64,000 nucleotides of DNA, from assembly GCA_963823665.1 (NCBI GenBank), contig CAWGMQ010000011.1, positions 576,001 to 640,000 on the forward strand. The letters are read 5' to 3'. Position numbers and translations under genes: made by a program. Positions 131 through 24,586 of this stretch are shown here, piece by piece. The notes below the pieces were generated by a model that was given only the letters and a program-made list of their open reading frames with translations, was not told the origin of the DNA and did not search any database. Origin of the DNA: an uncultured Planctomycetota bacterium. GTDB lineage: Bacteria; Planctomycetota; Planctomycetia; Isosphaerales; Isosphaeraceae. Positions within the stretch are counted from its first letter, which is position 1. Each line of letters begins with the position of its first letter.

Positions 131-325
131 GGGGATTCCAGACACCCATCCTTTAGTCACGGTCCCCCGAATCCATTCATTCGCGGCTCGCTCGTTCGGC
201 GCAAAATCACGGCCTCTGGTCAAGTCGAACACGCAGAAGGCGAGTGCCCGACGCTCGCCAAAACGTGGGCGTCTAACATCCCGACATCCCCGACGCTCGG
301 CAAACGGTGGGTGTCTGACATCCCC
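131..325 (+). repeat. MITE/REPIN-like element, copy 1 (empty). The core is 131-282, followed by a duplicated right end.
   Basis: It begins GGGGATTCCAGACACCCATC and ends GGTGGGTGTCTGACATCCCC, a ~20-bp imperfect terminal inverted repeat. By manual alignment it matches the reverse complement of 3484-3625 plus 4359-4366 with about 20 differences over ~150 nt. Confidence 0.85.
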
Positions 326-2141: not shown

Positions 2142-3367
2142 ATGGAGCCCCATCTGATCCGGCCCGGTCGCCGAGTCGCGGCGCTGATCGTGGTCTCGCT
2201 GGCGACCTGGCTGGCCTCGTGCCGCCCGCGAAGCGAGGCCCCCGGCGCCCGGGTCGACCGGGCGCTGGGCCGTGCGTTGCGATCGCTTATTGTCGCCCAG
2301 TCCCCCGACGGGGCCTGGCGATCGTCGACCTACGGCGTGTTCAAGGACGGCTTGTCGCTGACACCCACGGTGCTGAAGGCAGTCGCGTTCGGGCCGGACG
2401 TCGACGGTTCCGCGATGGCAAGGCGCCGCGCGGCCGGGTACCTGATCGGGTGCGTCAGGGCCGACGGCTCGATCGACGGCGGCCGGTTCGGCATGACCTA
2501 TCCGGTCTACAACGCCTCGGCCGCGGTGATCACGCTGACGGTCCTCGATGTCCCGGAGGGCCGCGGGCGCGCGACGCCTGGCTCCGCGAGCTGCGCCGGC
2601 GGCAATCGACCGAGGTCCTCGGATGGGGGCCCGGCGATCCGGCGTTCGGCGGATGGGGCTACTCGATCGAGCCGCCGTCGCGGGGAGATGCGGCCCTCGC
2701 CCCGGGCCAGCATGTAGACGCCGACCTCTCCTCGACCTTGTTCGCGATCGGAGCCTTGCGGATCGCCGGGGTGGAGGCCGAAGATCCCGCGATCCGCAAG
2801 GCCTTGACCTTCGTCGAGCGGTGCCAGAACGTCGCGGCGGGCGATGAGGGGAGCGATCCGCGATTCGATGACGGGGGCTTCTTCTTCACGACGACCGACC
2901 CGGTGCGCAACAAGGCCGGCGTCGCGGGCATGGATCGGCACGGCTGGACGCGCTACCACTCCTATGGCAGCGCGACGGCCGACGGGCTGAGAGCCCTGCT
3001 GCGTTGCGGCCTCGCCAGGGATCATCCGCGGGTCGCCGCCGCAAGGAAGTGGCTGGAGGCGAATTTCTCGCCCTCGACCAATCCCGGCACGTTCGAGCCA
3101 GCCCGCGAGTCCGACCGCGACGCCACGTATTTCTACTACGCGTGGTCGGTCGCCCACGCCTTCCGCGGCCTGGGGATCGCGGAGATCGAGTGCGACGGCC
3201 GCAGGATCGCCTGGGCCGAAGTCCTCGCGACCGAACTCGTCCGCAGGCAGCGCGACGACGGGAGCTGGGCTAACCGGTTCACTGCGTCCAAGGAAGATGA
3301 CCCCCTCGTCGCGACACCCTTCGCGGCCGGGGCACTCGGCATCTGTCGGACGTTCCTCGCCCGATGA
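2142..3367 (+). CDS. Prenyltransferase/squalene-cyclase-repeat protein, probable lipoprotein, frameshifted near 2560
   Basis: ORFs 2142-2717 and 2219-3367 join. QW-type repeats AQSPDGAW, RADGSI, FGGWGY, FVERCQN, DGGFFF and RQRDDGSW. Lipobox-like WLASC. Confidence 0.7.
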
Positions 3368-3438: not shown

Positions 3439-3625
3439 GGGATGTCAGACACCCACCTTTGGGATGTCAGACACCCACCTTTGGGGATGTCAGACACCCA
3501 CCTTTTGCCGGGCGTCGGACACGCGCCTTCTGCGTGTTCGAAATGACCGGGGGCCGTGGTCTTGCGCCGAACTTGCGAGCCGCGAATGAATGGATGCCGG
3601 GGCCGTGACAAAAAGATGGGTGTCT
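3439..3625 (-). repeat. MITE/REPIN-like element, copy 2. Inverted relative to copy 1 and interrupted by the intron; its last 8 nt lie at 4359-4366.
   Basis: Homologous to 131-282. One end is triplicated as GGGATGTCAGACACCCACCTTT (3439-3460, 3461-3482, 3484-3505). Confidence 0.85.
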
Positions 3626-4358
3626 TTGCGTCAGGAAAAGCTCGAGAAAGGAGGAAGTGCCTCGAAACACAGAAACCTTTCATCGCGACCCTGCGGGTTA
3701 ACGAATCCCGCCCGGCAGAGCCTGGCCGGCAGCCGGAAGCAAGTCTTGCGTGGGGAGGGGTGACCCTCACTGCGAAGCGTAGACAGCGAGTCTCCATGCC
3801 ATGCTATCGAGCCCCGAAATACTCATCGTGGGAGCCTCCGTTGTAGACACAAGCGGGGGCCGTGTCGACACGCCGCAATGGCCTGGCGTGTTCGGTCCTG
3901 CCGGGGTCCAAGAACATGGCGCAGGGACGCGAGGGTTGCTCGGGAACCTGAGAGCCCCATCCGTCTCCACTGACATTTCCGGCTCGGGAACCGGAATACC
4001 AACTCCCCGGCCCACGACCCCGCGTCGGGTCGCTGGGAGCGAACAAGACGCAAGGGTGGTATCGCCAAACGAAGGCAACGAAGTGCGGCGAAATGGGCGG
4101 ACGGGAGTCGGAGTGCTCCGTAGTAGCAGTGAAGCGGGGGAATGGGCCCTCCCAGACCCTGTGGAGCGAAGGGGGTACCGTGTCGCGGACTGGAAGCCGG
4201 AACCACGCCGAGGGCATTGGACCTCAGAGCGCGTCACCGCGAGGCGACCAGATCGTGAGAGGGACAGCGACGCCGCGACATGACGAGCCGGATGCCTTAA
4301 TTGGGCACGTCCGGATCAGTGGGAGCCCTGGCGGAGCGATCCGCCAGGGCGACCCGGC
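3626..4358 (+). mobile_element. ORF-less group II intron (ribozyme only, 733 nt)
   Basis: 5' end TTGCG. EBS1 AGACAC (3845-3850) sits in a stem-loop. DIII-like GAAGCGGGGGAA...CCCTGTGGAGCGAAGG. A short DIV is closed by GTGTCGCGG/CCGCGACAT (4180-4281). DV is GAGCCGGATGCCTTAATTGGGCACGTCCGGATC (4285-4317) with the AGC triad and AC bulge. The DVI hairpin has a bulged A at 4352. Removing the intron restores GATGGGTGTCT|GGAATCCC, as seen in the empty copy. Confidence 0.92.
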
Positions 4359-4366
4359 GGAATCCC

Positions 4367-4584
4367 GTGACACCTATCTCGTCGTCGACGCTCTGATCAA
4401 GGCGAACAAGGACTTCGATCTGATCATCATTCCCAACGCCGGCCACGCGTACGGCAGCGCATCGAACTATGTGGTGCGGCGCCGCTGGGACTATTTCGTC
4501 CGGGGGTTGCTGGGCGCCGAGCCGCCGAAGGAGTACCTGGTGAAAGCGGGCGGCGGTGGTCGTGGGGGGCGCGCGAATGACTGA
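4367..4584 (+). pseudogene. C-terminal fragment of an S9 (DPP IV-like/prolyl oligopeptidase) peptidase
   Basis: TYLVVDALIKANKDFDLIIIPNAGHAYG...RRRWDYFVRGLLGAEPP is the typical S9B C-terminus with the catalytic His. There is no upstream part or start codon. Confidence 0.75.
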
Positions 4585-4704: not shown

Positions 4705-7700
4705 TTATCGTTTGGCGGCGGCGGGTTGGCCTACTCGCACGCGAACAGGGAATGGCGGACGGGCTGGAGGCTTGGGCGGCGGGCTTTTCTCGAGCTCCGC
4801 CAGGATCTCCTCGATCGCCCGGTCAAGCTGCGGATCTTTGCCGGCGGCCACGAGCGCCGGGTCTTGCTCGACGTCGATATCGGGTGGAACGCCGACGTTT
4901 TCGACGACCCAGCCGTCCTCGGTGAAGATCGCCAGGTCGGGCGCCGTCACCATTCCGCCATCCATGAGCACCGGGAAGCCGAGAATTCCCACCAGCCCGC
5001 CCCACGTCTTCTTGCCGACCAGCTTTCCCAGGCCAAACTTACGGAACATCCAGGGGAACAAGTCGCCGCCCGATCCGGCGGTCTCGTCGATGATCATCAC
5101 CTTGGGACCCGAGGATTGCCGCGTTCGGCGTGCGGATCGTCTCGCCGTAACGCGTGGCCCAGTAGCTGACCAGTGGCCTACGAAGTAGGTCGATGTAATA
5201 GTCCGCGACCTGGCCGCCGCCGTTGAACCTTTCGTCGACAATGATGGCTTCCTTGCCGGCTTGCGGGAAGAAATAACGCTTGAAGTACTCATGGCCCGAC
5301 CCGGCGGTGTTCGGCACGTAGACATAAGCGACGCGTCCGCCCGTGCGTTCGTGAACTTTGCGCAGATTGCCTTCGACCCAGGCGCGGTTGCGAAGCGAAC
5401 GTTCGTCGCCGATGGGTTCGACCACCACCGTGCGTGCGTTCGACCCGTCCGCATTTGGACCGACCTTGAGCTCGATTCGCTTGCCCGCGGTTCCTTCGAA
5501 CGCGCGATAGACCTCGCTGTCGGCCTTGATCTCCTTGCCGTCGACGGCCAGGAGGAAGTCGCCAGGCTTGACGTCGACGCCCGGTGCCGCGAGCGGCGCG
5601 CGCAGGCTCGTGTCCCAGTAGGCGCCACCGTAGATCGTCTTGAACCGGAATCGGCCGTCCTGCACGTCGTAATCGGCGCCGAGCAGGCCGACGGGCACCG
5701 GCTTGGGCTCATAGATGTGTTCTCCGCCACCCGAGAAGCTGTGGCCGACCGACAGCTCACTGAGCATCATGCGAATCACGCGATTCAAGTCGTCTCTGGT
5801 CGCCAAGTGGGGAATGAACGCCTCGTATTTGCTCCAGACGGCGTTCCAGTCCGCGCCGTGCATGTTCGTGGCGTAGAAGTAGTCGCGGTTGATCCGCCAG
5901 GCTTCGCGCAGAATCTGCGGCCATTCCGAGCGTGGCTCGACCCGCACGGAGATCGCGGCGAGCGGAAGCGCTCCGTCGCCCTTGTTGAATTTGCCCGCGT
6001 CGACGATACCGAGCGAGGGCGGTCCGGAAGGAAGTCCATCAGGACCGGCAGGCAAGGACGTCCACAGAATCTTCTTGCTTGTCCGCGGAAATTTGAAATT
6101 CGTCGATTCCTTCGGCGAGCGTTTCTTCCTCGCGCTTCTTGAGATCGAATCGCCTCAGCGATGGCTTGCCACGTAATGTCGGCCCGGCGCGTGTAATAAA
6201 TCTGTCCGTCGGTTCCGGACGCCAGGTTGGCAATAAGCCCCGACTCGGCCGGCAAAGCCACGACCCGGGCCGAGATGCCGTCAACGTCGACGACGGTGGG
6301 AGGCGAGGGTTTTGCCTTCAGCTCAGACATTCGCTTATTGAACGCGCTCGTGAAGGTGTCACCATCACCTTCGGTCCCGGGCTTCCCTTCGACTTTCTCC
6401 TTCTCGTTGGATTTCTCGTCTTTGCCTTTTTCATCCTTCGTCTTCTCGTCAGCCGGCTTCTTCTCGGCGTCGGCGGCCCCTTCCTCGTCGCTCTCCTTGA
6501 GGAGCGGGTTCGGCGTCGCCTTGGCCAGCGTGACCAGGTAGATCGTCGACGTCACAAGCATGTCGGTGTTCGACTGATCGAACCAGTTGTTCACCGGGCC
6601 GGCGTCGGTCGAGGCCAGGAAATAGAGGTACTTGCCGTTGTGGTCGAACGTCGGTTCACCGGCCTCGGCGAGCCCGTCGGTGATGCCCGTCGATTTGTCA
6701 TTCTCGACGGAGTAGAGCCAGATCTGCTGGAAGCCGGCGCGATTGGTGAGGGAGTACGCCAGCCACTTCGAGTCGGCAGACCAGTCGTAATTGGTGCGCG
6801 CGGTGCGTCTCGGTCCGTAGATCGGCTCGGCGGCGATGCGCTTGACTTTCCCGCTTTCGAGGTCGATCCAGAAGAGGGTGCGAGAGTTGTCGATCATGGC
6901 GATCTTCTTGCTGTCGGGCGGACCACACCAGTCCCTCGTAGAACCCGGAGCCGGGTATTGGAAAAGACTTGCCGTCGCCCTTGCCGTCCTGCGGGCGAAT
7001 GACGAGCTGGTACTCACCGGTCGCGTCGGACAGGTAAGCGATCGACTTGCCGTCGGGCGACCAGGCGGGGTGGCGTTCGTGCGCGCCGGGCGTCTGTGTG
7101 AGGTTGCGCGGGTCACCCTTCTTGGCTGGCACTGTGACGATCTCGCCGCGATAGCCGAGTACGGCACGGTTGCCGCCGGGTGAAATCGATGCGCCCGAAT
7201 GTGCTTGGGATCGCTCGCAAATCGCGGCCGGGTCTCGGTCGAGGTCGGCTGCCACGAAATCTTGAGCCGGTGCGATTGCCGCTCGTGCGGGTCGAACAGA
7301 TAGACCCAGTCCGCCTTGCTCGTAGATCAGTTTTCCCGCACCCGAAGACGCGCTGGCCATCGGAAAAGCATCATGATCTGTGCATCGGGCAACGGTCTTG
7401 GCGGCGAGGTCATAGGAATAGACGTTGAACTCACCGTCACGATCGGAAAGGAAGTAGACGGTCTCGCCGATCCACATCGGCTCGGTGTCGTTGCAACCTG
7501 CCGGGGGCTTGGGAATCTCCACGTGCGACAGGTCATCCAGTTTCAAGACCCAGATCCGCGACACGGTTCCGCCGCGGTAGTTCTTCCACTGCCTGAAGTT
7601 TTCCGCAGAGCGGCGTGTACGCCAGGATACTTTCCATCCGGAGAGATCGCCCCTTTTTCGCCGTTCGGAACAGGCAGACGCTCCGGCACTCCGCCTTTGA

Positions 7701-8148
7701 TATCAACCACGAAGAACTGCGAATAGCGCCGCGAGAAAACCGCCCGCTGAGAGCTGAAGATGACCTTGCCGCCGGGGGTGAAGCCGCGAACGACGTCCTC
7801 GCCCGGGTGCCAGGTAAGGCGAACCGGCTCGCCCCCATCGGCGGGGATGACATAAACATCGGCGTTTCCATCGTAACTGCCCGTGAACGCGATGTGCTTT
7901 CCGTCCGGAGAAAAGTAAGGGTGCTGCTCGGATCCTGAGTGAGAGGTGACTCGTCGTGGGTTCGAGCCATCCGGCCCGGCCACCCAGATGTCATCGCCGT
8001 AGACGAACGCGATCTTTCCATCGGTGATCGCCGGCGCCGCCAGCAGGCGCGTGTCGCCGGTCTCGACCGCAGCCGCGCGAATCGGTGCGACCGCCAGGGC
8101 AATTGTTATTAACATCATGATCAACCGATTCCGCAATTGACGCGCCAT
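4705..8148 (-). CDS. Tricorn protease homolog (S41 peptidase with PD40 beta-propellers and PDZ), split by several frameshifts
   Basis: Successive ORFs give a signal peptide, PD40 repeats (FSPDGKHIAF, WSPDGKSIAY), SELSVGHS, IIVDERFNGGGQVADY and the catalytic GSGGDLFPWMF...GKKTWGGLVGI. Confidence 0.9.
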
Positions 8149-13223: not shown

Positions 13224-16200
13224 CTAACGTTTTTTGGCATTCGCCGCTTCCCATTTGGTCCTCCACTCCGCCGCCTCGTCCTTCTTGTCCATGGCCTCGT
13301 ACAGTTGCACTAACCGTTCGATGGCTTCGGGAAGTCGGGCTTTGCCCTGCGGCGGAATCGTCTTCTCCCGCTGCTTCATTCCCTCGTAACCGGCCAGCAG
13401 GAGCGGCTCGGCGTCGGCGAATTTCTTCTGGCCTAGCAAGGCGCCGCCGAGTATCGACTTCGTGTTGAAAGTGGACCACACGTCGGCCTGCGTTTTTTCG
13501 CGGATGGCCAGGCACTCGCGGAGAAGCGGTTCGGCCTCGGTCCATTTCTTCTGTTGCAGGAGGCTGCTACCGATCTGGGCGAGCATGCCAGCCAGTTGGG
13601 GACTGTCCTTCGGCAGCGTTTTCCGAGCAATGGGCAATTGCTCCGGGAGCAAGCCGCTAAGCTTGGCGTCCTCGCCCGCCTTCGCATAAGCGTCCATCAA
13701 TTGGGTGCCGACCCAGCGGAGCGAGGGGAGGTTTTTCGCCGATTGATGGGCTTCTTCGAGGAGTGGGATCGCCTCCTTGAGCCGGCCGGCGTCCTTGTAG
13801 TTGACCCCGAGGTTGGCCACTGTCTGCTGCGTATTCAGGTGACGGCGGCCGAACTTGGCCTCTTGCCGCTTGAGCACATCCTCGAACAGAGGCACGGATT
13901 TGCCGAATTGCTTTGTACTCCAGTACGCCGAGGCGAGGTTGTTGATCGTGGTCAGCATGTCGGAGTGGTCGGGGCCGAGCTTGGCGATCTGGGTGTCGCG
14001 GACGCGTTCGAGAAGGGCGATCGCGTCTGAGAGCTTGCCAACGTTCCGGTACGCCGCTGCGAGGTTCTTGATCGTCTTCAGGGTGTCGGGGTGGTCGGGG
14101 CCGAGCTTGGCGATCTTGACGTCGCGGGTGCGCTCCAAGACGACGATCGCCTCGGGGATCCTGCCGATCGCCTGGTACGCCACGGCGAGGTTGTTGAGCG
14201 TGTTCAGGGTGTCGGGGTCGTCGGGGCCGAGCTTGGCCATCCGGGCGTCGCGGGCGCTCTCCAAGACCACGATTGCCTCGGGAAGCCTGGAGGCGTCCAT
14301 GTACACCCGGGCGAGATTGTCGAGCGTGTTCAGGGTCTCGGGGTGATCTGGGCCGAGCTTGGCGATCCGGGCGACGCGGACGCGCTCAAGAAGGGCGATC
14401 GCCTCGGGGAGCTTGCCGAGGGACCCGTATGCCGAGGCGAGGTCGTTTTGCGTTAAAAGGCTGTCGGGGTGGTCGGGGCCGAGCCCGGCGATCCGGGCGT
14501 CGCGGACGCGTTCGAGAAGGGCGATCGCCTCGGGGAGCCTGCCGGCGTCCCGGTACGCCGAGGCGAGGTTGTGAAGCGTGTTCACGGTGTCGTGGTGGTC
14601 TTGGCTGAACTCGGCGAGGCTGTTGAGCGCGCTCGGGCGCTGGGGTAGTTGGGGCCGACCTTGGCGATCAGGGCGTCGCAGGCTCGCTCGAGAATGGCGA
14701 TCGCCTCGGGGAGCCTGCCGGCGGCTTGGTACGCCGAGGTGAGGGTGTTGAGCGTGATCAGGGTGTCGTGGTGGCCGGGGCCGAGTGTACCTTCGAGTCC
14801 CTTGGCGGCCGCCTCCGCCATCGCCAAGACTTCGGCGTCCACTCGACCGCGGTGTTGAAGAATGTGCGCGAGAAAGCCTTGAGCGTAATAGCCTTCGGGC
14901 GACCGTGGATCTCGCTTCCGCGCCGCTTCGAGCACGGCCCGCAATTGCGCTTCGGCCTTTTCCCAGGACGCCAGGCCGTGGTAGGTATTCGCGATTGTCC
15001 TGCGGAGTGCGCGTTCGAGCTCCGGCTGGTCCGCAAACCGCGTTCCTACCTTCGCGGCCGCGCGGTCGAGGACTTCCAGAAGCGTGACCTTGTCTTCCAC
15101 GGCGTTGTTCGCCGGCTCGGCCTGGGTGAGCAGGTCCTGGGTGAGGAAGTCATTGATCGTCTGGGCCTTGGCCCGCTCCTGGCGCGCCTTGGTTTCGGAG
15201 GCGATCGCCTTGTCGCGCTGTTCGTCAGCCGCGGCGCGCTGTTCGGCTTCCGCGTCGCGGGCCCGCTGGGCTTCGATCTTGGCATTTCGCTCGCCATCGG
15301 CCCGCTCGCGTTCAGCCACGCGAGCGCGGTTCGCCTCCCACATGCCCCACGACGTACCGATGATCCCGGCCAGCAGCGTGAGCAGGAGAAGACTCGCCGC
15401 GATCACCTGCCCCTTGTTCCGCCTGACGAATTTCCTCAAGCGGTAGCCGCGGCTGGGCGGACGGGCCTCGACGACCTCGTCGGCCAGGTACCGCTGGATA
15501 TCTCGCGCGAAGCCGTTGGCCGTCTCGTAGCGCCTGGTGCGATCCTTCTCGATCGCCTTCATCACCACCCAGTCGAGCTCGCCCTGCAACAGCTTCGACA
15601 GCCTGGCGGGCTCGATACTCCGGTTGGCGGCGATGTTCGGCAGTGCTTCGGCGGTGCTCAGCTTGGTGCTGGGACGCGGCGGATCGACCTCGCGCACCAT
15701 TCGTAGCATCTCGAGGATGGCACCCCGCTGGAACTGCTTGGCGCTTAACGGCGGCGACCCCGTGAGCAGTTCGTAGAGCATGACGCCCAGGGCGTATACG
15801 TCGGTGCGTGTGTCGATATCCGTCGACGTCGGGTTGGCCTGTTCCGGCGACATGTACGCCGGCGTTCCCACGATCGCCCCGAGGTCGGCCAAGCTCATGT
15901 CGGTGAGCTTCAGTTCGGTCGCCTTGGCCACGCCGAAGTCGATCACCTTCGGCGTGGGCCGCCCATCCACCTCCGTGACCAGCACGTTGCCTGGCTTCAG
16001 ATCGCGGTGGATGATTCCCTTCTGGTGAGCGTGTTGCACCGCCTGGCAGACCGCCACGAACAGCTCCAGTCGGGCTGGCACTGACAGCCGCTGCTGGTCG
16101 CAATACTCGGTAAGCGGCACTCCCTTGACCAGCTCCATGACGAAGAACGGCTGCCCGGCCGGGGTGAGGCCGCCGTCGTAGATGCGCGCGATGTTGGGAT

Positions 16201-16783
16201 GGTCCATCAGCGCGAGGGCCTGGCGCTCGGCGTCGAACCGGGCCAGCACTCCGCGTGAATCCATCCCGGTCTTGATCAGCTTGAGCGCCACCTCACGCGT
16301 CACTGGCTCGGTCTGCCTCGCCAGATAGACCGATCCCATGCCGCCCTCGCCGATCACGTCGACGAGTGTGTATCGGCCGGCGATCACGGTGCCGATTCCT
16401 TCGCGCGTTGTGGCCTTTGTCGCGCGGGGCCCCGTGGCCGAGAATTCCCATGCCGTGGTGGCATCGAAATCGGGGTGGGCAGACGTCGCGGTCGCCCAGC
16501 CTGGGCCTGGATCCTCGGTTGGCATATCGGTCGGGTCCGGCGCGTCCGGGTCGAACGCCTGAGTGGCGGAGGTTCTGTCCGGGAGTAGGGCGGTCGCCGG
16601 TTGGCTGCATGCGGGTTCGACGATGCTGTCGGGAGCGGCGTGTGCGGCCAGCAGTCGATCGACGTCGGCCCGCAGGTCGGCATCGCTTCCGCAAGCCTCG
16701 GCCAGGTATCTCGGCCGCTCTTCCGATGAGAGTTCGACGGCGGCGAGGAAGACATCGCGGACGCGGCCTGGATCGGCGGGCAT
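13224..16783 (-). CDS. Ser/Thr protein kinase with TM helix and 42-aa TPR array (paralog 1), frameshifted near 14635
   Basis: GEGGMGSVY, HRDLKPGN, KVIDFGVAK, GTPAYMSPEQ. LGPDHPDT repeats. AGGAGG RBS before ATG 16783. Confidence 0.9.
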
Positions 16784-16808
16784 GACTTGACCTCCTGGTT
16801 CACCCTTC

Positions 16809-16837
16809 AATGCGGATTTGCCGTCGATTGAGTCTCA
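16809..16837 (-). promoter_or_regulatory. Putative ECF-sigma promoter TGAGAC-N17-CGCATT
   Basis: Same boxes and spacing as 20326-20354, with a partly diverged spacer. Confidence 0.5.
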
Positions 16838-16925
16838 AGAGATTCCGGATTCTTTTCCAGACCCGTCGGTGGGTCGCTCGGCCGGGACAACGGCTCGCTC
16901 GCACCGCTGACGGGTAGCCCGCCCT

Positions 16926-19900
16926 TCACTTCTTCTCCGCCGGCATCGGGGCCGCATTGGGGTACTTCGCCCGCTCCGCTTGCCACTCCTTGACTTCGTC
17001 CAGCTTGTTCGTGGCGGTGGAGAGCTCGATCAGCCGTTCGATGGCCTCGGGGATGCGGTCTTTGCCCTGCGGCGGGATCGTCTTCTCCCTCTGCTTCATC
17101 CCTTCGTAGCCCTTCCGCAATAGCGGTTCGGCTTCGGCGTACTTCTTCTGGCCCAGCAGGGCGCCGCCGAGCTGCGACTTCGTGTTGAAGGTGGACCAGA
17201 CATCGGGCTGCGTCTTCTCGCGGATGGCGAGGCACTCGCGGAGGAGCGGCTCGGCCTCGGTCCATTTCTTCTGTTGCAGGAGGATCAGACTGATCTGGGC
17301 GAGCAAGCCGGTCAGTTCGGGGCTCGCCTTAGGCAGCGTGTTTCGAGCTTCGGCTAGTTCCTCCGGGAGCAAGTCGGTGAGCTTCGCGTTCTCGCCCGCC
17401 TTCATATAGGCGTCGATTAATTCAAGGCCTAGAAAGCGAAGCTTTGGGATTCTCTTTGCCGCTTGATGGCCTTCCTCGAGGAGCGGGATCGCCTCCTTGA
17501 GCCGGCCGGCATCCTTGTAGTTGATCCCGAGGTTCGCCACCGTCACCTGTGTATCCGGGTGCTGGCGGCCGAGCTTGGCCTCTTGCCGTTTGAGCACGTC
17601 CTCGAACAGAGGGACCGATTTGTCGAGTTGCTTGGTAGTCCAGTACGCCGTGGCGAGGTTGTTGAGCGTGGTCAGGGTGTCGGGGTGGTCGGGGCTGAGC
17701 TTGGCGATCCGGGCGTCGCGGACGCGCTCGAAGAGGGCGATCGCCTCGGGGAGCCTGCCGACGTCCCTGTACGCCAGGGCGAGGTTGTTGAGCGTCTTCA
17801 AGGTGTGGGGGTGGTCAGGGCCGAACGTGGCGATCGAGGCGTGGCGGACGCGCTCGAAAAGGGTGATCGCCTCGGGGAGCCTGCCGACGGACTGGTACGC
17901 CTGAGCGAGGCCGATTTGCGCGGTCAGGGTTTCGGGGTGGTCCGGGCCGAACGTGGCGATCCGGGCGTGGCGGACGCGCTCGAACAAGGCGATCGCCTCG
18001 GGGATCCTGCCGACGGCAATGTACGTCAAAGCAAGGTTGTTGAGCGTGCGGAGGGTATCGGGGTGGTCGGGGCCGAGCTTGGTGACCCGGACGTCGCGGA
18101 CGCGCTCGAACAGGGCGATCGCCTCGGGGAGCTTGCCGGCTTTCAGGTACATCCCGGCGAGGTTATGGAGCGTGTTCAGAGTTTCGGGGTGGTTGGGGCC
18201 GAGCTTGGCGATAAAGGCATCGCGGACGCGCTCGAAGAGGGCGATCGCCTCCGGGAGCTTTCCGATCTTGTCGTACACTAAGCCGAGGTGGCTGAGCGTG
18301 ATCAGGGTGGAGGGGTCGTCGGGGCCGAGTGTGCGTTCGAGTCCCTTTGCGGCCGCCTCGGCCATCTCCAAGACCTCGGCGTCCGATCGACCGCGGTGGA
18401 AAAGAATGTGCGCGAGGTAACCTTGCGTGCCATAGGCTATGGCCGACGGCGCATCACGCTGCCGCGCTGTGTCTAGCGAGGCCCGCAATTGAGCTTCGGC
18501 CTTTTCCCAGGACGCAAGGCCGTGATACGTCTTCGCAATCGTCCCACGGAGGTGAAGCTCGAGTTCCGGCTTATCCGCGAACCGCGTTCCCACCTTTTCA
18601 GCCGCGCGGTCGAGGACTTCCAGGAGCGTGACCTTGTCCTCGACTGCGTTGTTCGCCGGCTCGGCCTGGGTGAGCAGGTCGTTGGTGAGGAAGTCGTTGA
18701 TCGTCTGGGTCTTCGCGGCCTCCTCGCGGGCCTTGGTTTCGGAGGCGATCGCCTTGTCGCGCTGGTCGACCGCATTGGCACGCTGTTCGGCTTCCGACTG
18801 CTGTGCCCGCCGGGCGAATGCCATTCCCAAACTGGTGCCCACGATCCCGCCGACCAACGTCAAGAAGACCAGGCTCGCGGCGATCACCTGCCCCTTGTTG
18901 CGCTTGACGAATTTCTTCAAGCGGTAGCCGCGGCTGGGCGGCCGGGCTTCGACGACTTCGTCGGCCAGATACCGCTGGACGTCGCGGGCGAATCCGCTCG
19001 CCGTCTCGTAGCGCCGGGTGCGGTCTTTCTCGAGCGCCTTCATCACGACCCAGTCGAGCTCGCCTTGCAGAAGTTTTGCGAGCCTGGCCGGATCAATGCT
19101 CCGGTTCGCCGCGATGCTCGGCAGGGCGTCGGCGGTGCTCAGCTTGGTGCTCGGCCGCGGCGGGTCGACCTCGCGGACCATCCGCAGCATCTCGAGGATG
19201 GCACCGCGCTGGAATTGCTTGGCATCCAGCGGCGGCGAGCCGGTCAGCAACTCGTAGAGCATCACACCGAGAGCGTACACGTCGGTGCGGGTGTCGATGT
19301 CCATCGAAGAGGGGTCGGCCTGCTCGGGCGACATGTACGCCGGAGTGCCGACGATTGCTCCGACGTCGGCCAGGCTCATGTCGGTCAGCTTCACCTCGGT
19401 CGCCTTGGCCACGCCGAAGTCGATCACCTTCGGCGTGGGCCGCCCATCCACCTCCGTGACCAGCACGTTGCCTGGCTTCAGGTCGCGGTGAATGATCCCC
19501 TTCTGGTGAGCGTGCTGGACAGCTTGACACACCGCCGCGAAAAGCTCCAGTCGGGCTGGCACCGACAGCCGCTGCTTGTCGCAGTACTCGGTGAGCGGCA
19601 CCCCGTTGACCAGCTCCATGACGAAGAACGGCTGCCCGGCCGGGGTGAGGCCGCCGTCGTAGATGCGGGCGATGTTCGGGTGGTCCATCAAGGCGAGGGC
19701 CTGGCGCTCGGCGTCGAAACGGGCCAGCACTCCCCGCGAGTCCATCCCGGTCTTGATCAGCTTGAGCGCCACCTGCCGCTTGACCGGCTCGGTCTGGCCC
19801 GCGAGGTACACCGATCCCATGCCGCCCTCGCCGATCACCTCGACGAGCGTGTACCGGCCAGCGATGACGGTGCCGATCCCTTCACCCGTCGTGGCCCTTG

Positions 19901-20300
19901 TCGCGCGGCGGCCCGTGGCCGAGTATTCCCGTGCCGTGGTGGCATCTAAATCGGAGGGGTGGGCAGACGTCCCCGTCGCCCCGCCTGGGCCTGGATCCTC
20001 GTTTGCCATATCCGTCGGGTCCGGCGATTCCGGGTCGAACGCGGCGGTGGACATTCCGCCCGGGAGAGTGGCGGTCCCGCGACTGTCGGAGACGGATGCA
20101 GCGGTGGCTTGCGCAGTGGTGGGTGATCGGGGTTCGACGATGCTGTCCGGGGCGGCGTGTGCGGCCAGCAGTCGATCGACCTCGGACCGGAGATCGGCAT
20201 CCCGTCCGCAGGCCCCCGCCAGGTAGGCCGGCCGCTGTTCCGGTGAAAGTTCGATGGCTGCGAGGAACACATCGCGGACGCGATTCGGATCGCCGGGCAT
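16926..20300 (-). CDS. Ser/Thr protein kinase with TM helix and 42-aa TPR array (paralog 2, intact)
   Basis: Complete Hanks kinase motifs and seven LGPDHPDT-type repeats. AGGAGG RBS. Confidence 0.93.
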   Translation of the reverse strand: MPGDPNRVRDVFLAAIELSPEQRPAYLAGACGRDADLRSEVDRLLAAHAAPDSIVEPRSPTTAQATAASVSDSRGTATLPGGMSTAAFDPESPDPTDMANEDPGPGGATGTSAHPSDLDATTAREYSATGRRATRATTGEGIGTVIAGRYTLVEVIGEGGMGSVYLAGQTEPVKRQVALKLIKTGMDSRGVLARFDAERQALALMDHPNIARIYDGGLTPAGQPFFVMELVNGVPLTEYCDKQRLSVPARLELFAAVCQAVQHAHQKGIIHRDLKPGNVLVTEVDGRPTPKVIDFGVAKATEVKLTDMSLADVGAIVGTPAYMSPEQADPSSMDIDTRTDVYALGVMLYELLTGSPPLDAKQFQRGAILEMLRMVREVDPPRPSTKLSTADALPSIAANRSIDPARLAKLLQGELDWVVMKALEKDRTRRYETASGFARDVQRYLADEVVEARPPSRGYRLKKFVKRNKGQVIAASLVFLTLVGGIVGTSLGMAFARRAQQSEAEQRANAVDQRDKAIASETKAREEAAKTQTINDFLTNDLLTQAEPANNAVEDKVTLLEVLDRAAEKVGTRFADKPELELHLRGTIAKTYHGLASWEKAEAQLRASLDTARQRDAPSAIAYGTQGYLAHILFHRGRSDAEVLEMAEAAAKGLERTLGPDDPSTLITLSHLGLVYDKIGKLPEAIALFERVRDAFIAKLGPNHPETLNTLHNLAGMYLKAGKLPEAIALFERVRDVRVTKLGPDHPDTLRTLNNLALTYIAVGRIPEAIALFERVRHARIATFGPDHPETLTAQIGLAQAYQSVGRLPEAITLFERVRHASIATFGPDHPHTLKTLNNLALAYRDVGRLPEAIALFERVRDARIAKLSPDHPDTLTTLNNLATAYWTTKQLDKSVPLFEDVLKRQEAKLGRQHPDTQVTVANLGINYKDAGRLKEAIPLLEEGHQAAKRIPKLRFLGLELIDAYMKAGENAKLTDLLPEELAEARNTLPKASPELTGLLAQISLILLQQKKWTEAEPLLRECLAIREKTQPDVWSTFNTKSQLGGALLGQKKYAEAEPLLRKGYEGMKQREKTIPPQGKDRIPEAIERLIELSTATNKLDEVKEWQAERAKYPNAAPMPAEKK

Positions 20301-20325
20301 GATCTGACCTCCTGGTTCACCCTTC

Positions 20326-20354
20326 AATGCGGATTTGCCGCCGGTCGAGTCTCA
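20326..20354 (-). promoter_or_regulatory. Putative ECF-sigma promoter TGAGAC-N17-CGCATT
   Basis: It lies between the ECF stop codon and the kinase RBS, and is duplicated at 16809-16837. Confidence 0.5.
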
Positions 20355-20367
20355 ACAAACTCCGAAA

Positions 20368-20928
20368 TCATTTCCCCGACCCGTCGGCGAGACGTGAGGT
20401 CAACCAGGCCCGGGCGTAAGTCCAGAGTCGGAAGGCGGTTGCACGGGGAATACCGAGGGCGTCGCCCGCTTCTTGGACGGAGAGGCCGCCGAAGACCCGC
20501 AGCTTCGCCAGCTCGGCGGCCGACGGTTCGATCGCCGTGAACCGGGTGAGAGCATCGTCCAGGTCGATCCAGCGGTCGGGGTCGGAGCCGCGGGCGGGCA
20601 AGCGATCCGGGTCGAGGTCGGCACGCGCGGCGCGGTCGCCGCGCTTCTCCGCCCGTTTCGCCCGGGCGTGGTCGACGAGGATCCGGCGCATGGCCTCGGC
20701 GGCCGCGGCGAAGAAGTGACCGCGGCCATCGAACTGCTGATCCCCGACGAGCTTCAGGTAAGCTTCGTGAACCAGGGCGGTGGCGTCGAGGGTGTGCCCG
20801 GGAGCTTCGGCCGCCATGCGTGCGGCGGCGAGCTTCCGCAGCTCATCGTAGACGAGCGGTAGCAACTGGGCTGCGGCCTTGCAGTCGCCGGCTCCTGCGG
20901 CCTCGAGCAGGCGGGTCAGATCGGGCAT
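20368..20928 (-). CDS. ECF sigma factor (TIGR02999-like, kinase-associated)
   Basis: LLPLVYDELRKLAA, TLDATALVHEAYLKL, HFFAAAAEAMRRILVDHAR, WTYARAWL. Confidence 0.92.
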   Translation of the reverse strand: MPDLTRLLEAAGAGDCKAAAQLLPLVYDELRKLAAARMAAEAPGHTLDATALVHEAYLKLVGDQQFDGRGHFFAAAAEAMRRILVDHARAKRAEKRGDRAARADLDPDRLPARGSDPDRWIDLDDALTRFTAIEPSAAELAKLRVFGGLSVQEAGDALGIPRATAFRLWTYARAWLTSRLADGSGK

Positions 20929-20986
20929 GAGGGCGAGTTTATCAGCGCCCGGCGGCTGAAGCACACAGAAACCAAGCGGGTGACGA

Positions 20987-22903
20987 CTACGGAGGAGGCT
21001 GGTGATAAGGCTGCCTGGACGCGTAGAGCTTCAATCGGGTGCGGTAATCCGCTTTCTCTACTTCCGTCGCGAGCGATGCGATCGCGTCTTCTTGTGACTT
21101 GACAGCCTGGTCGAACTGACCCGCTTCGGCGTAGGCGGCGGAAAGTGTGTCGAGGAAAGTTGCGTTCTTCCGCTGGGTCAACTCGCACGCTTTCTTCGCC
21201 GACTCGACGGCCTGACTGCCATTGCGGTACTTCGCGTCCGAACAGGTGGCCTGGAGCCAGGCACGGTTGTTCAGACTTTCGGGGTAACTGGGATCGAGGC
21301 GGATGGCCTCATTGTAATCGGCGATTGCCTTGCCGAATGCGCCCATACTCGCGTGCGCGACGCCGCGGTTGAGATACGCGGCGGCGTAATTCGGGTCGAT
21401 ACGAATGGCTTCGCTGTAGTCGTCAATTGCCTTTTTGCGCGCACCCATCTTCTCCGATGCGATGCCGCGGCAGTAGTGTGCTCTCGCGCACCTGGGATCG
21501 ATTCGAATGGCCTCGCTGAAATCGGCGATTGCCTTCGCCTCATCGGTCTTCTCATGCCACGCGCGACCCCGCCCAACGTAAGCGTCAACAAACGCGGGAT
21601 CGAGGCGGATGGCCTTCTCAAAATCAGCGATCGCTGTGTCGAGTTGTTTCCTGTCAAGCAAGATTTCGCCGCGATTTCGGTAGGCCAGGACGCCTTCCGG
21701 ATCGATACGAATGGCCTCGTTGAGGTCGGCGATCGCTCGATCGTCATCCTTGTTGAGCCGCCAGGCACAGCCGCGGTCGTTGTAGGCCATCGCGAAATCG
21801 GGTTTCAGGCGAATGGATTCGCTCAAGTCATCGACCGCCTTGACGTATTCCTTCTTCAGGATCCAGGCGTTACCGCGGTAGGCATAGGCCATAGAATCGC
21901 TGGGGTCGATGCGAATCGCGGAGTTGAAGTCATCGATGGCTTTCTCGCATTCCTTCTTCTGGCGCCACGCAAAGCCGCGGCAGGTGTAGGCGTTGGCGAG
22001 GCGAGGCTCGAGCTTGATTGCGTATGTACAGTCCTTGATTGCTTGATCGGGTTTGTGCAGGTCGATACAGACTGCGCCGCGCATGCAGTAGGCGATGGCG
22101 TACTTGGCGTCGAGCCGAATGGCATGATCGAAATCGCTGAGGGCCTTGGCGTGCTGCTTCTTCTCGTGCCACGCGGAGCCGCGTTGGAAATAGACGATGG
22201 CTTTGCTGGGATCGAGCCGGATCGCGCTGTTGTAGTCCGCAATGGCCTTGTCGTACTGTTTTTCGGCACTCCAGGTGTCACCACGATTGCAATAGGCCTC
22301 CGCAAGGGCCGGCCGCATTCGGATCGCCTCGTCATAATCGGCACGTGATTTGGCGAACTCCCCCTTCGCGTACAGGACCCTGGCGCGCTCGAAATAGAAC
22401 CAAACGCGATTCGGATTGAGCTCGATCGCTTTGGTGTAGTCAGAAAGGGCGAGGTCGATTTCGCTCTTGTCACGCCGAATGCAGGCGCGCACAGCGTAGG
22501 GGAACGGGTCGCGCGGATCCTTGGCGATCCGCGCGGTGAAGAATTCCACGGAACCGTCCACTGGGATCACATCATCGGCGTTGGCCCAGCCTTCCATGGT
22601 CCCGCTTTCGGATTTCAACCACAGCCAAAGGCCTTCCGCGCTCACAACCCGGTAGATCCGGACGTTCTCGCTAGGAGAAAACCGCGTCTTCCCCAGGCGG
22701 AATGTCAGCTCGCTGGATTTTTGCACGACCCTCTTGCCGACCATGTCCCTCGCGGGCTGGCCAGCGGCATCAGGCGGAAAGGACACAGCGGCGACTAAAC
22801 AGCTAACAGCCGTGATCGCCCGCAACTGGGCCCGAGCCCTCGGGCTGCAACTTCGATGTAGGGTTCGATTCAATCCGAGCTTTTGCAGTTTGCAACCGGA
22901 CAT
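20987..22903 (-). CDS. Secreted TPR-repeat protein with N-terminal SH3-like segment (paralog 1)
   Basis: More than 10 34-aa TPRs (AIADYNEAIRLDP, AYCNRG). C-terminal NNRAWLQATC...RNGSQAVESAKKACELT. Confidence 0.88.
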   Translation of the reverse strand: MSGCKLQKLGLNRTLHRSCSPRARAQLRAITAVSCLVAAVSFPPDAAGQPARDMVGKRVVQKSSELTFRLGKTRFSPSENVRIYRVVSAEGLWLWLKSESGTMEGWANADDVIPVDGSVEFFTARIAKDPRDPFPYAVRACIRRDKSEIDLALSDYTKAIELNPNRVWFYFERARVLYAKGEFAKSRADYDEAIRMRPALAEAYCNRGDTWSAEKQYDKAIADYNSAIRLDPSKAIVYFQRGSAWHEKKQHAKALSDFDHAIRLDAKYAIAYCMRGAVCIDLHKPDQAIKDCTYAIKLEPRLANAYTCRGFAWRQKKECEKAIDDFNSAIRIDPSDSMAYAYRGNAWILKKEYVKAVDDLSESIRLKPDFAMAYNDRGCAWRLNKDDDRAIADLNEAIRIDPEGVLAYRNRGEILLDRKQLDTAIADFEKAIRLDPAFVDAYVGRGRAWHEKTDEAKAIADFSEAIRIDPRCARAHYCRGIASEKMGARKKAIDDYSEAIRIDPNYAAAYLNRGVAHASMGAFGKAIADYNEAIRLDPSYPESLNNRAWLQATCSDAKYRNGSQAVESAKKACELTQRKNATFLDTLSAAYAEAGQFDQAVKSQEDAIASLATEVEKADYRTRLKLYASRQPYHQPPP

Positions 22904-23047
22904 TGCCGCGGTCTCCCGGGAGGCATCGCAAGTCCGCTTCGCCGAATAATAGCCATCGGTGTATGAAGATACGACGGAAGGCCCGGCGCGATCAAGGGGG
23001 TGTGATTCGCGGCGAACTAACTCTCGAGGCCCGAGTCAATCAGACGA

Positions 23048-24586
23048 CTAAGGGGGAAGCTGGCGGTAGGGCTGCCGGGAAGCGTAGAGCTTCAATCGGG
23101 TGCGGTAATCCGCTTTCTCCGCTTCTGTGGTGAGCAATGCGATCGCGTCTTCTTGTGACTTCACTGCCTGGTCGAATTGACCCGCTTCGGCGTAGGCGGC
23201 GGAAAGTGTGTCGATCAGAGATGCGATCTTCCACTCGGTCAAGCCGCACGCCTTTTTCGCTGATTGGACGGCCTCTTTGCCGTTGCGGATCCTGGCGTCG
23301 GGACACGTGGCCAGGAGCCACGCGCGGTTGTTGAGACTTTCGCCAGAGGTGGGATCGAGCCGGATGGCTTCGGCGTAATCGGCGAGTGCCTTGTGGTAGT
23401 CCAGCTTGTCTCGCCACGCGTCGCCGCGCGCACGGTAGGCGAGAGTATCCTGGGGATCGATGCGAATGGCAGCGCCAAAATCGGCGATTGCCCGGGTGAG
23501 CTCTTTGCTCTCGTGCCAGATGGCGCCGCGGTTGAGATAGGCAAGCTCGCAGTCGGGATCAATGCGGATTGCTTCGGAGAAGTCGTCGATCGCCTTGACA
23601 CGTTCGTTGATTGCTCGCCAGATGAGCCCGCGGCCGGCGAATGCCAGAGCGTTTGCGGGTTCGAATCGAATCGCGGTGTTCAAGTCTGCGAGTGCCTTGT
23701 CGAACTCATTCTTGGCCGCCCAGGCGCTGCCGCGGTCGATGTAAGCGATCGCCAGACGAGGATTGAGCTTGATGGCGTGGTTGAAGTCCTTGAAGGCTCC
23801 GTCAAGCTCATTGAGCTGCTGGCGGATGTAGCCGCGAGCGCTAAAGGCGAGCGCGTTTCTTGGATCAAGCCGGATGGCGTGGCTCATGTCGCCAAGGGCG
23901 CTGGGAAATTCTTTCTTGAGCCCCCGGACGCGGCCGCGGTTGAAGAACGAATCGCCACGGTTTGGATCGAGCTGGATCGCTCGGCTGTAGTCGGCGATCG
24001 CTCTGTCGTACTGGCGCTCGCTGCACCATGACTCGGCACGGCTCGAGTAGGCTTCGACGCTCTCGGGCCACCGAAGGATCAGCTCGTCGTAGTCTGCGCG
24101 AGCGCGAGCGTAGTTCTTCTTTGCAGTCCACACCCTGGCGCGCTGGAAGTAGAACCAGGCGCGCTCGGAATTGAGCTGGATTGCCTTGTTAAAATCGCGC
24201 AGGGCGAGGTCGACCTCGCCCTGATCATGACGGACGAGCGCTCGCCCGGCGTAGAGAAAGGGATCGCGTGCGTCGTTGGCGATCCGGGCCGTGAAGAACT
24301 TTGCGGCGTCTTCGACGGGGATCACATCATCCGCATCGGCCCAGCCTTCGATGACACCGTTCTCGGACTTCAGCCACAGCCTGGTACCGTCGGCACTGAC
24401 GACGTGATAGATCGGTACCTCGTCGCTATGGGAAAACCGCCTGTCCCCGCCATGCAGCATCAATTTGCCCGACTTCTGCACAACTCGCGAGCCGTCGGCG
24501 ATCTTGCCGGTCTGGGCGTGGGCCCCGGCCGCGACACACTGAGCGACCAACAGACAAATGATCGCCATGAGCACCCGAGCCGGCAT
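23048..24586 (-). CDS. Secreted TPR-repeat protein (paralog 2)
   Basis: Same architecture with fewer TPRs. Signal peptide MPARVLMAIICLLVAQCVAAGAHA. Confidence 0.88.
   Translation of the reverse strand: MPARVLMAIICLLVAQCVAAGAHAQTGKIADGSRVVQKSGKLMLHGGDRRFSHSDEVPIYHVVSADGTRLWLKSENGVIEGWADADDVIPVEDAAKFFTARIANDARDPFLYAGRALVRHDQGEVDLALRDFNKAIQLNSERAWFYFQRARVWTAKKNYARARADYDELILRWPESVEAYSSRAESWCSERQYDRAIADYSRAIQLDPNRGDSFFNRGRVRGLKKEFPSALGDMSHAIRLDPRNALAFSARGYIRQQLNELDGAFKDFNHAIKLNPRLAIAYIDRGSAWAAKNEFDKALADLNTAIRFEPANALAFAGRGLIWRAINERVKAIDDFSEAIRIDPDCELAYLNRGAIWHESKELTRAIADFGAAIRIDPQDTLAYRARGDAWRDKLDYHKALADYAEAIRLDPTSGESLNNRAWLLATCPDARIRNGKEAVQSAKKACGLTEWKIASLIDTLSAAYAEAGQFDQAVKSQEDAIALLTTEAEKADYRTRLKLYASRQPYRQLPP

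Follow-up and report, generated by a model that had tools for sequence, protein, structure and literature searches.

A largely ORF-less group II intron in the Isosphaeraceae that probably homes into terminal inverted repeats of Y1/HUH elements

We examined a window of 64,000 nucleotides from an uncultured Planctomycetota (Isosphaeraceae) soil bacterium (assembly GCA_963823665.1; genome of 16.46 Mb in 12 contigs; G000 below). Two copies of a 152-bp MITE-like element lie near its left end. The first (131..325, forward strand) consists of 131-282 plus a duplicated right end reaching 325, and the second (3439..3625, reverse strand) has its right terminal inverted repeat (TIR) triplicated, with three empty target motifs in 3439-3505. 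An ORF-less group II intron of 733 nt (family A; 3626..4358, forward strand) splits the left TIR of the 152-bp element. Upstream of it stands the filled target (3615..3625, forward strand; IBS1 at 3620-3625 plus the IBS2 region), and downstream the rest of the TIR (4359..4366, forward strand), which begins with IBS3 (G4359) and matches the empty site at 132-139 on the reverse strand. The repeat end adjoins a C-terminal fragment of an S9 peptidase (4367..4584, forward strand; PF00326, E=2.4e-4, below the curated cut-off). Elsewhere in the window, prenyltransferase-like and protease-like genes are split across several frames (2142-3367 and 4705-8148), which suggests frameshifts or assembly errors, and 13263-24213 holds arrays of 126-nt and 102-nt coding repeats with duplicated kinase-like segments, the labels TPR and kinase being our guess from period and sequence.

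The intron edges were set by the empty site at 140/139 and by the junctions of other copies in the genome. Rfam RF02005 gave the single group II domain I match in the window (3702-3916, 138 bits), and no RT ORF lies within 3626-4358. The group II core features are present: besides domain I, a catalytic domain V (DV; 4285..4317, forward strand) with the AGC triad and a 5-nt loop, identified from fold and sequence, and a domain VI (DVI; 4321..4355, forward strand) whose fold bulges A4352. The canonical termini GUGYG...AY are absent, and the intron instead reads UUGCG...GGC. Among homologues the first base varies together with the penultimate one, U(C)-start introns ending in GGC or GGT and G-start introns in GAC; the penultimate base was G in 40/40 U/C-start introns with a known tail, and the GAC end was found in 11/11 G-start introns. 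Read from this pattern, the termini are a covarying variant rather than a sign of decay. An unrelated intron that is nested in some copies (see below) likewise starts with U and ends in GGC.

Group IIE and IIF introns (ORF classes E and F/g2-g4) are characterized, in the relevant passages of PMC3753933 and PMC3552965, by an α′ in the Id3 loop, a 5-nt DV loop, IIB-like EBS1-3 and an RT-X protein without an endonuclease (En) domain. The family A intron resembles them in all four respects, the α′ in the Id3 terminal loop and the DV loop being taken from the Rfam alignment and folds and the α/α′ GGCC pairing from a reading by eye, and differs in that UUGCG..GGC replaces GUGYG..AY. The additional Id3 bulge of IIE/IIF introns is also missing, since columns 3837/3857 and 3838/3856 are paired in 60/77 aligned introns (G.A or A.A in the other 17); it is kept in the G-start relatives, whereas U-start introns close it by base pairing. 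Positions U3844 (δ) and A3806 (putative δ′), both on the forward strand, are each invariant in 77/77, an invariance that is no proof of covariation. We therefore describe the RNA as IIE/IIF-like with variant termini, and we infer splicing and mobility from its sequence. Contigs from 4 of 20 runs contained no joint across the intron and no spliced or empty form, an absence that is uninformative, and one contig from a soil RNA run carried the 5′ end of a related intron at the same motif with a different flank, which is not evidence of expression.

For the analysis of exon recognition we assembled 108 homologous loci, 80 through an RT search and 28 through a DNA search. The alignment comprised 77 introns, namely 74 loci with a complete 5′ end and the three types of this genome, after 34 loci whose 5′ part was incomplete or interrupted had been dropped. 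A preliminary description of this DNA had proposed that AGACAC (3845-3850) in the d3 loop is complementary to GTGTCT (3620-3625) of the exon, and had suggested covariation among homologues as a test. All the sequences that it quoted were found where it had placed them, and the covariation upheld EBS1. The columns of 3845..3850 (forward strand; stem 3834-3842/3852-3860) were the top mutual-information partners of each exon base from -1 to -6, and 442 of 462 EBS1-IBS1 positions were paired over 37 different hexamers, against a shuffle mean of 222 and maximum of 257. After removal of repeated combinations 269/288 were paired (shuffle mean 128, maximum 157). Because the introns are related these shuffles overstate significance, yet the effect is still very large. 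EBS3, C3909 on the forward strand, pairs with the exon +1 G; it was paired in 63 of 66 homologues and was the top mutual-information column for +1. A fold placing AGACAC in a helix rather than in the loop had been named as counting against this assignment. The minimum-energy single-sequence fold does shut the last two bases, pairing A3849/C3850 with G3843/U3844, but it leaves AGAC open, the 3843-3850 pair could form in just 40/77 homologues, and the covariation with exon bases -5 and -6 overrides it. Since the alignment lends the closed stem no support, we set minimum-energy folding aside as a test of EBS1 and preferred covariation.

EBS2 proved less simple. The EBS2 region (3820..3827, forward strand) is unpaired in the fold, and TCATC (3823-3827) can indeed pair with GATGG (3615-3619) as first proposed, but across homologues this register, with exon bases -7 to -11, is at chance (142/360 paired against a shuffle mean of 142; 72 distinct cases). 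The family-wide register is instead 3820-3824 with -8 to -12, directly after the κ GAAA, with 228/360 paired against a shuffle maximum of 182. At GATGG the 3823-3827 register would give five pairs in the window lineage, and a lineage-specific register shift confined to family A is possible; a shift of this kind exists in the intron RmInt2, according to PMC4615759. Filled sites carry GGTGG over GATGG in a ratio of 15:3, compared with 55:50 at empty sites (p=0.02), a preference that fits a C3822-G(-10) pairing yet is confounded with the identity of the element end.

These pairings argue against recognition of the TIR as a hairpin. Class C (IIC) introns, as outlined in passages of PMC4424553, have no EBS2, miss part of EBS1 and read a DNA stem-loop at terminators or attC, and the preliminary description had drawn an analogy with them. 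The present intron shares with class IIC a dispersed and mostly non-coding class of target, and structure-directed targeting, with base pairing secondary, could draw on the weak palindrome of the TIR core and on the lax EBS2 pairing in the family A lineage. Unlike IIC, however, it shows a full, covarying 6-bp EBS1 together with covarying EBS2 and EBS3, and it inserts within the palindrome rather than after a stem, so that such targeting appears extremely improbable. With neither a short EBS1, nor a missing EBS2, nor a position after a stem-loop, the analogy with IIC has to be given up, and RmInt2 is the right analogue.

The targets were then defined by the copies in the genome. Among 40 of 84 candidates scored we counted at least 13 full ORF-less copies, 97-100% identical, one further ORF-less copy that is broken close to its end, and six copies with an ORF. 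Two pattern searches gave 21 intron 5′ ends, one of which is a short fragment. All 21 follow TGGGTGTC(T/C), with T at -1 in 20, and 18/21 have the exact motif; the exon base at +1 is G in 18/20 and A in 2/20. The motif occurs 160 times genome-wide, against twice for the reversed control. The count of filled and empty sites suggested in the preliminary description gave 18 exact sites filled and 105 exact sites followed by G left empty, so that about 15% of exact sites are filled. Within the window the motif G(A/G)TGGGTGTCT has six exact and three one-mismatch occurrences where 1.64 were expected, and nine were reached in 0/100 shuffles; the empty sites are at 306-316 on the forward strand and at 140-150, 3447-3457, 3469-3479 and 3492-3502 on the reverse strand. 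A GTGCG after the motif at C11:568.7k was considered as a further intron and rejected, being unrelated coding DNA. The 21 insertions are distributed over the right end (12, one of them in a duplicated end) and left end (two, including the window copy) of the 152-bp element, the ends of TIRtrons (three; see below) and other TIR-like ends (four).

Copies are also clustered, with six within 28 kb on C11 and two tandem pairs, a pattern that might be expected if intron-bearing repeats had been copied by duplication or gene conversion and the introns had not retrohomed independently. We regard such passive spread as very improbable, because introns sharing 97-100% identity occupy repeats that match the window copy at no more than about 75-91%, some at one end and some at the other and in more than one type of element, and because passive spread would not create the strand bias reported below. 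Between the members of the head-to-tail pairs (G000 C10:1458546-1460035 and C3:193347-194658) there is only a duplicated piece of TIR of 24 or 33 bp.

The 152-bp element is short, non-coding and multicopy, with imperfect TIRs and ends that are often tandemly duplicated, as is characteristic of MITEs. It gave at least 43 matches (40 of 106 candidates scored) and at least 40 copies in the genome. Among 36 distinct full-length copies listed from G000 and G001 no target-site duplication was apparent by eye, which fits an HUH mover over a DDE mover, and the table of their ends revealed by eye no REP/REPIN foot (GTAG or CGTC hairpin). An autonomous element sharing the interior of the repeat was not found, the TIR alone being shared, and a metagenome scan for the repeat end gave 0 matches. 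The preliminary description took this intergenic repeat itself to be the target and a safe haven. What stands of that proposal is that EBS pairing directs the intron to a multicopy terminal motif, that both ends are used and that the intron disperses into repeats, and here 14/21 insertions do fall within the 152-bp element, which with its at least 40 copies would favor a specialist for which any link to a transposase is incidental. The other 7/21 are outside it, three of them at TIRtron ends, the element matched just 4/81 genomes of the family, and introns with the same EBS1 in G030, as well as a fragment in G033, use the core in other repeats. We therefore consider specialization for the 152-bp repeat quite unlikely and take the TIR core to be the target. 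The haven is only relative, given the truncated S9-peptidase fragment beside the repeat end and one repeat copy that breaks a Y1 gene, a RAYT-like gene at G000 C8:1768.6-1769.1k (L110).

The TIR core of the 152-bp element is common to a multicopy element encoding a 420-aa Y1/HUH transposase. This protein has NHLH and YVDLNP motifs, matches NF047646 below its cut-off (E=3e-8) without any Pfam hit, and is matched 67 times in this genome, in many cases by fragments. Inverted AGACACCCA../..TGGGTGTCT flank the gene at both ends in 8/21 loci from five genomes, at one end in eight and at neither in five. A Y1/HUH gene between TIRs, with TIRs scattered as singles, dimers and clusters, is the arrangement termed TIRtron or TIRYT in the passages of Di Nocera et al. 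(PMC3733652) on these elements, and it is present here. The 152-bp element and the TIRtron share only about 20 bp of TIR, so that mobilization of the former by the 420-aa transposase is presumptive. The GGGGWSAS end motif is not universal among TIRtrons, according to the same source, and the core here, GGGTGTCTG, a weak palindrome, departs from it, whereas the targets of many relatives of the intron are of the GGGGWSAS type, 26/51 U-start targets fitting its relaxed reverse complement. The sections of PMC3733652 and PMC6006769 on TnpA-Y1 subclasses tie TIRs to subclasses 2.1, 2.2 and 2.5 and give no REP-like flanks for 2.3; the 420-aa protein is multicopy and has the YVDLNP signature that Quentin et al. 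(PMC6006769) describe for subclass 2.3. TIRs around subclass 2.3-like Y1 genes at five loci (L329, L331, L341, L345 and L346) are often in tandem, with up to 14 copies at a single end. To summarize the target, EBS1 and EBS3 match the TIR core GGGTGTCT/G (slash, insertion point) at the ends of the Y1/HUH element and of its 152-bp derivative, and all copies lie in the core.

Filled sites are not equally distributed between the strands. In the C11 and C6 clusters every filled site is on the forward strand, whichever end of the element is involved. As a proxy for fork direction we used synonymous G/C skew within 20 kb, the G-rich strand being the leading strand. By this measure the local skew puts 19/21 copies on the G-rich strand. 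Where the regions examined had a clear skew, that strand had 12 of its 21 sites filled and the opposite strand 1 of 25. Because of clustering these copies are better treated as about 11 clusters than as 21 independent events; nine clusters agree with the skew, one is ambiguous and one disagrees. Four of the five empty motifs in the window are on the disfavored strand. Together with the excess of GGTGG over GATGG, the strand difference shows that the motifs, each of them a predicted target in the preliminary description, are not equal as targets. On C3, C6, C8, C10 and C11 of G000 the sign of the skew switches at intervals of tens to hundreds of kb, a patchiness that suggests many inversions or assembly joins.

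By analogy with En-minus group II introns, which prefer the lagging-strand template (PMC4615759), the bias is as expected if reverse splicing occurs into that template. Transcription or selection, rather than priming at the fork, might have produced it with targeting otherwise as described, and two observations lend this some weight: in this genome the skew reports fork direction only indirectly and with noise, and no strand bias is seen among 13 copies or fragments from other families (5/13 agree with the skew; short flanks). The nearest upstream gene is in the same sense in 9/21 and in the opposite sense in 12/21, which argues against transcription, and the helper protein lacks the En domain, as in the introns for which the lagging-strand preference is documented. 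We hold a cause other than the fork to be unlikely and retain reverse splicing into the lagging-strand template.

The ORF-less copies presumably depend on their ORF-bearing relatives. The six ORF-bearing copies are 96% identical over positions 1-547 and encode an RT/maturase without HNH. The 450-aa protein scores over the cut-off for TIGR04416 and fits an En-less RT-X of class E/F; a search of plasmid proteins returned relatives of below 60% identity without class labels. The six ORFs measure 450, 450, 419, 375, 375 and 284 aa, so that two of six are full length, and since four of the six helpers contain the nested intron only the copy at C6:911026 is both full length and uninterrupted; some of the ORF breaks may be errors, given the many frameshifts in this assembly. 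Comparison with L063:6027-8038 and L023 shows the ORF-less intron to be a mosaic: over 1-480 it matches its ORF-bearing counterpart at 98-99%, domains I-III deriving from ORF-bearing family A, over 481-651 it is closer to the ORF-less family C, and its DIV is not of the helper's type; judging from these identities, a DIV module may have been swapped between lineages. From the mosaic identity and the general pattern given in passages of PMC4424553 we infer mobilization in trans. There, ORF-less bacterial introns are called rare and co-occur with related ORF-bearing copies, and nested introns are known; in this genome, by comparison, 14 near-identical ORF-less copies outnumber the six that bear ORFs.

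The nested intron, an RT-HNH intron, sits in 7/7 copies at the DV/DVI junction, equivalent to window 4325/4326 (G000 C3:191.9k, C3:1263.9k, C6:913.8k, C6:1321.4k, C8:519.6k, C8:678.1k and C11:558.7k), and its putative EBS1 and EBS2 match this junction by eye. The equivalent of window position 4318 is A in all 13 uninterrupted ORF-less family A copies and T in all seven invaded ones; it is possible, from this sequence difference, that the A is an escape change at position -8, in IBS2 of the nested intron.

Relatives of the intron extend the association with TIRs. Family C is 72% identical to family A, has EBS1 UGUCUG and inserts after CAGACA, that is, into the opposite strand of the same TIR, five bases from the family A site. 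Four copies in this genome and three junctions in G001 show this; one more family C copy in this genome, the fifth, has a rearranged 5′ flank. A further copy, with EBS1 GGACGC, is located after GCGTCC. Two simple interpretations of this pair were discarded: families A and C are not sister lineages, as they fall in different subclades of the tree, and a sharing-out of the two ends between them, with a single strand permitted, finds no support, as the other-family copies agree with the skew in only 5/13 cases. In a quick, unrooted protein tree the family A RT clustered with introns that use either strand (SH-aLRT 98), the trees being composed of retrieved relatives only.

Introns with the same EBS1 as family A are found in G030, which has five; 3/3 visible 5′ junctions are at GGGTGTCT and +1 is G in 4/4. 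A 5′ fragment of such an intron in G033 is at the same core, and in both genomes the repeats are other than the 152-bp element. The motif reaches at least 25 copies in just 6/121 genomes of the family, among them this genome, G030 and G033. Close relatives with EBS1 UGACAC follow GTGTCA at 7/7 junctions, and in their five genomes the GGTGTCAG-type motif exceeds the GGGTGTCTG-type by 18:2, 3:0, 41:2, 15:2 and 8:1. More widely, 26/51 U-start introns with a known 3′ exon stand at NNGWCM/CC, the reverse complement of a TIRYT-type end, compared with 0/14 G-start introns; the remaining 25/51 U-start homologues have targets outside this motif. Other conserved targets are AAAAAG/CG (L185, L186, L188 and L190) and ACGAAG/G (L169-L172 and L238).

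Y1 genes occur in 11/108 homologue loci, compared with a single locus in an evenly spaced background sample of 800 kb, taken from this genome only; among aligned loci they accompany 7/57 U-start and 1/17 G-start introns. At four loci (L155, L167, L187 and L248) a Y1 gene is bracketed by two TIRs, one of which contains the intron, and L183 shows the same with an imperfect partner; at L163 and L175 it lies about 60 bp before a Y1 gene and no matching partner TIR was found. A phylum-wide search using the junction pattern was abandoned as an intron finder, since 29/30 returned loci had no intron. Two structural variants were noted among the homologues, a putative recombinase-like insertion of about 2.2 kb that breaks domain I (L176:133-2900, approximately) and an insertion of about 2.3 kb near position 449 in the G030 copies.

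Taking these observations together, we think it quite probable that a non-autonomous intron served by an En-minus, class E/F-like protein homes in trans into Y1/HUH TIRs at the replication fork, and that this habit is clade-wide in Planctomycetota. The excised intron RNA would associate in trans with the 450-aa RT/maturase that ORF-bearing sister copies encode, and would reverse-splice into the TIR where the fork exposes single-stranded DNA, for the most part on the lagging-strand template. As each element has the TIR in both orientations, one end would always be on a usable strand, and as the transposase family keeps making new TIRs the intron would parasitize a renewable target; because insertion splits the TIR core, it may in turn limit the spread of the transposon. 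Related introns would do the same in the TIRs of further Y1 elements, using either strand of the core, and their EBS1 would change along with the TIR variant.

A bolder proposal, to which we give slightly less than even confidence, is that a Planctomycetota-centered intron clade is a hyperparasite of Y1/HUH ends. Two of its lineages would use one TIR core from opposite strands, each having altered a single EBS1 base together with the TIR variant (UGACAC/AGACAC for the first, UGUCAG/UGUCUG for the second), and the ORF-less, trans-moved recombinant would be the most successful form and may have escaped an En+ intron through one base by domain V. If true, this would be a three-level stack of parasites (transposon end, intron, and intron within intron) whose recognition codes are readable from sequence.

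In the CC-licensed PMC and bioRxiv literature our search found no paper on group II introns in the TIRs flanking TIRYT/RAYT genes; likewise no group II intron in TIRs came up when PMC3733652 and PMC6006769 were searched by term in their main text, and the portions consulted of PMC8643678 and bioRxiv 2024.12.23.630110 do not cover this class of target. The closest precedent is RmInt2, a class D intron of Sinorhizobium meliloti GR4, and by this analogy the mechanism would be ordinary EBS-guided homing. In the relevant passages of PMC4615759 and PMC5894124, RmInt2 is En-minus and inserts by EBS pairing into both inverted repeats of ISRm17, which are argued to double its targets and to guarantee one on the lagging strand. 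The likenesses are many: absence of the En domain, an inverted-repeat target recognized by EBS pairing, a lagging-template bias, relaxed EBS2, multiple copies and head-to-tail copies. As there described, RmInt2 occupies the repeats of ISRm17 in one strain and relies on its own RT, whereas here an IIE/IIF-like RNA occupies Y1/HUH TIRs and their derivatives, mostly as ORF-less copies, with a habit spread over many genera and two lineages on opposite strands of one TIR. This would widen a single-strain case to a clade-wide strategy against poorly studied HUH transposon ends, which the EBS1 of the intron also labels, including TIRs around subclass 2.3-like Y1 genes, and it offers naturally varied EBS/IBS pairs in the IIE/IIF ribozymes, which have received little study, with a bearing on the role of EBS2. 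The present case thus goes beyond RmInt2 in the kind of element targeted, in how broad the clade is, in that both strands of a single TIR are used with EBS1 altered to match, and in that ORF-less copies dominate.
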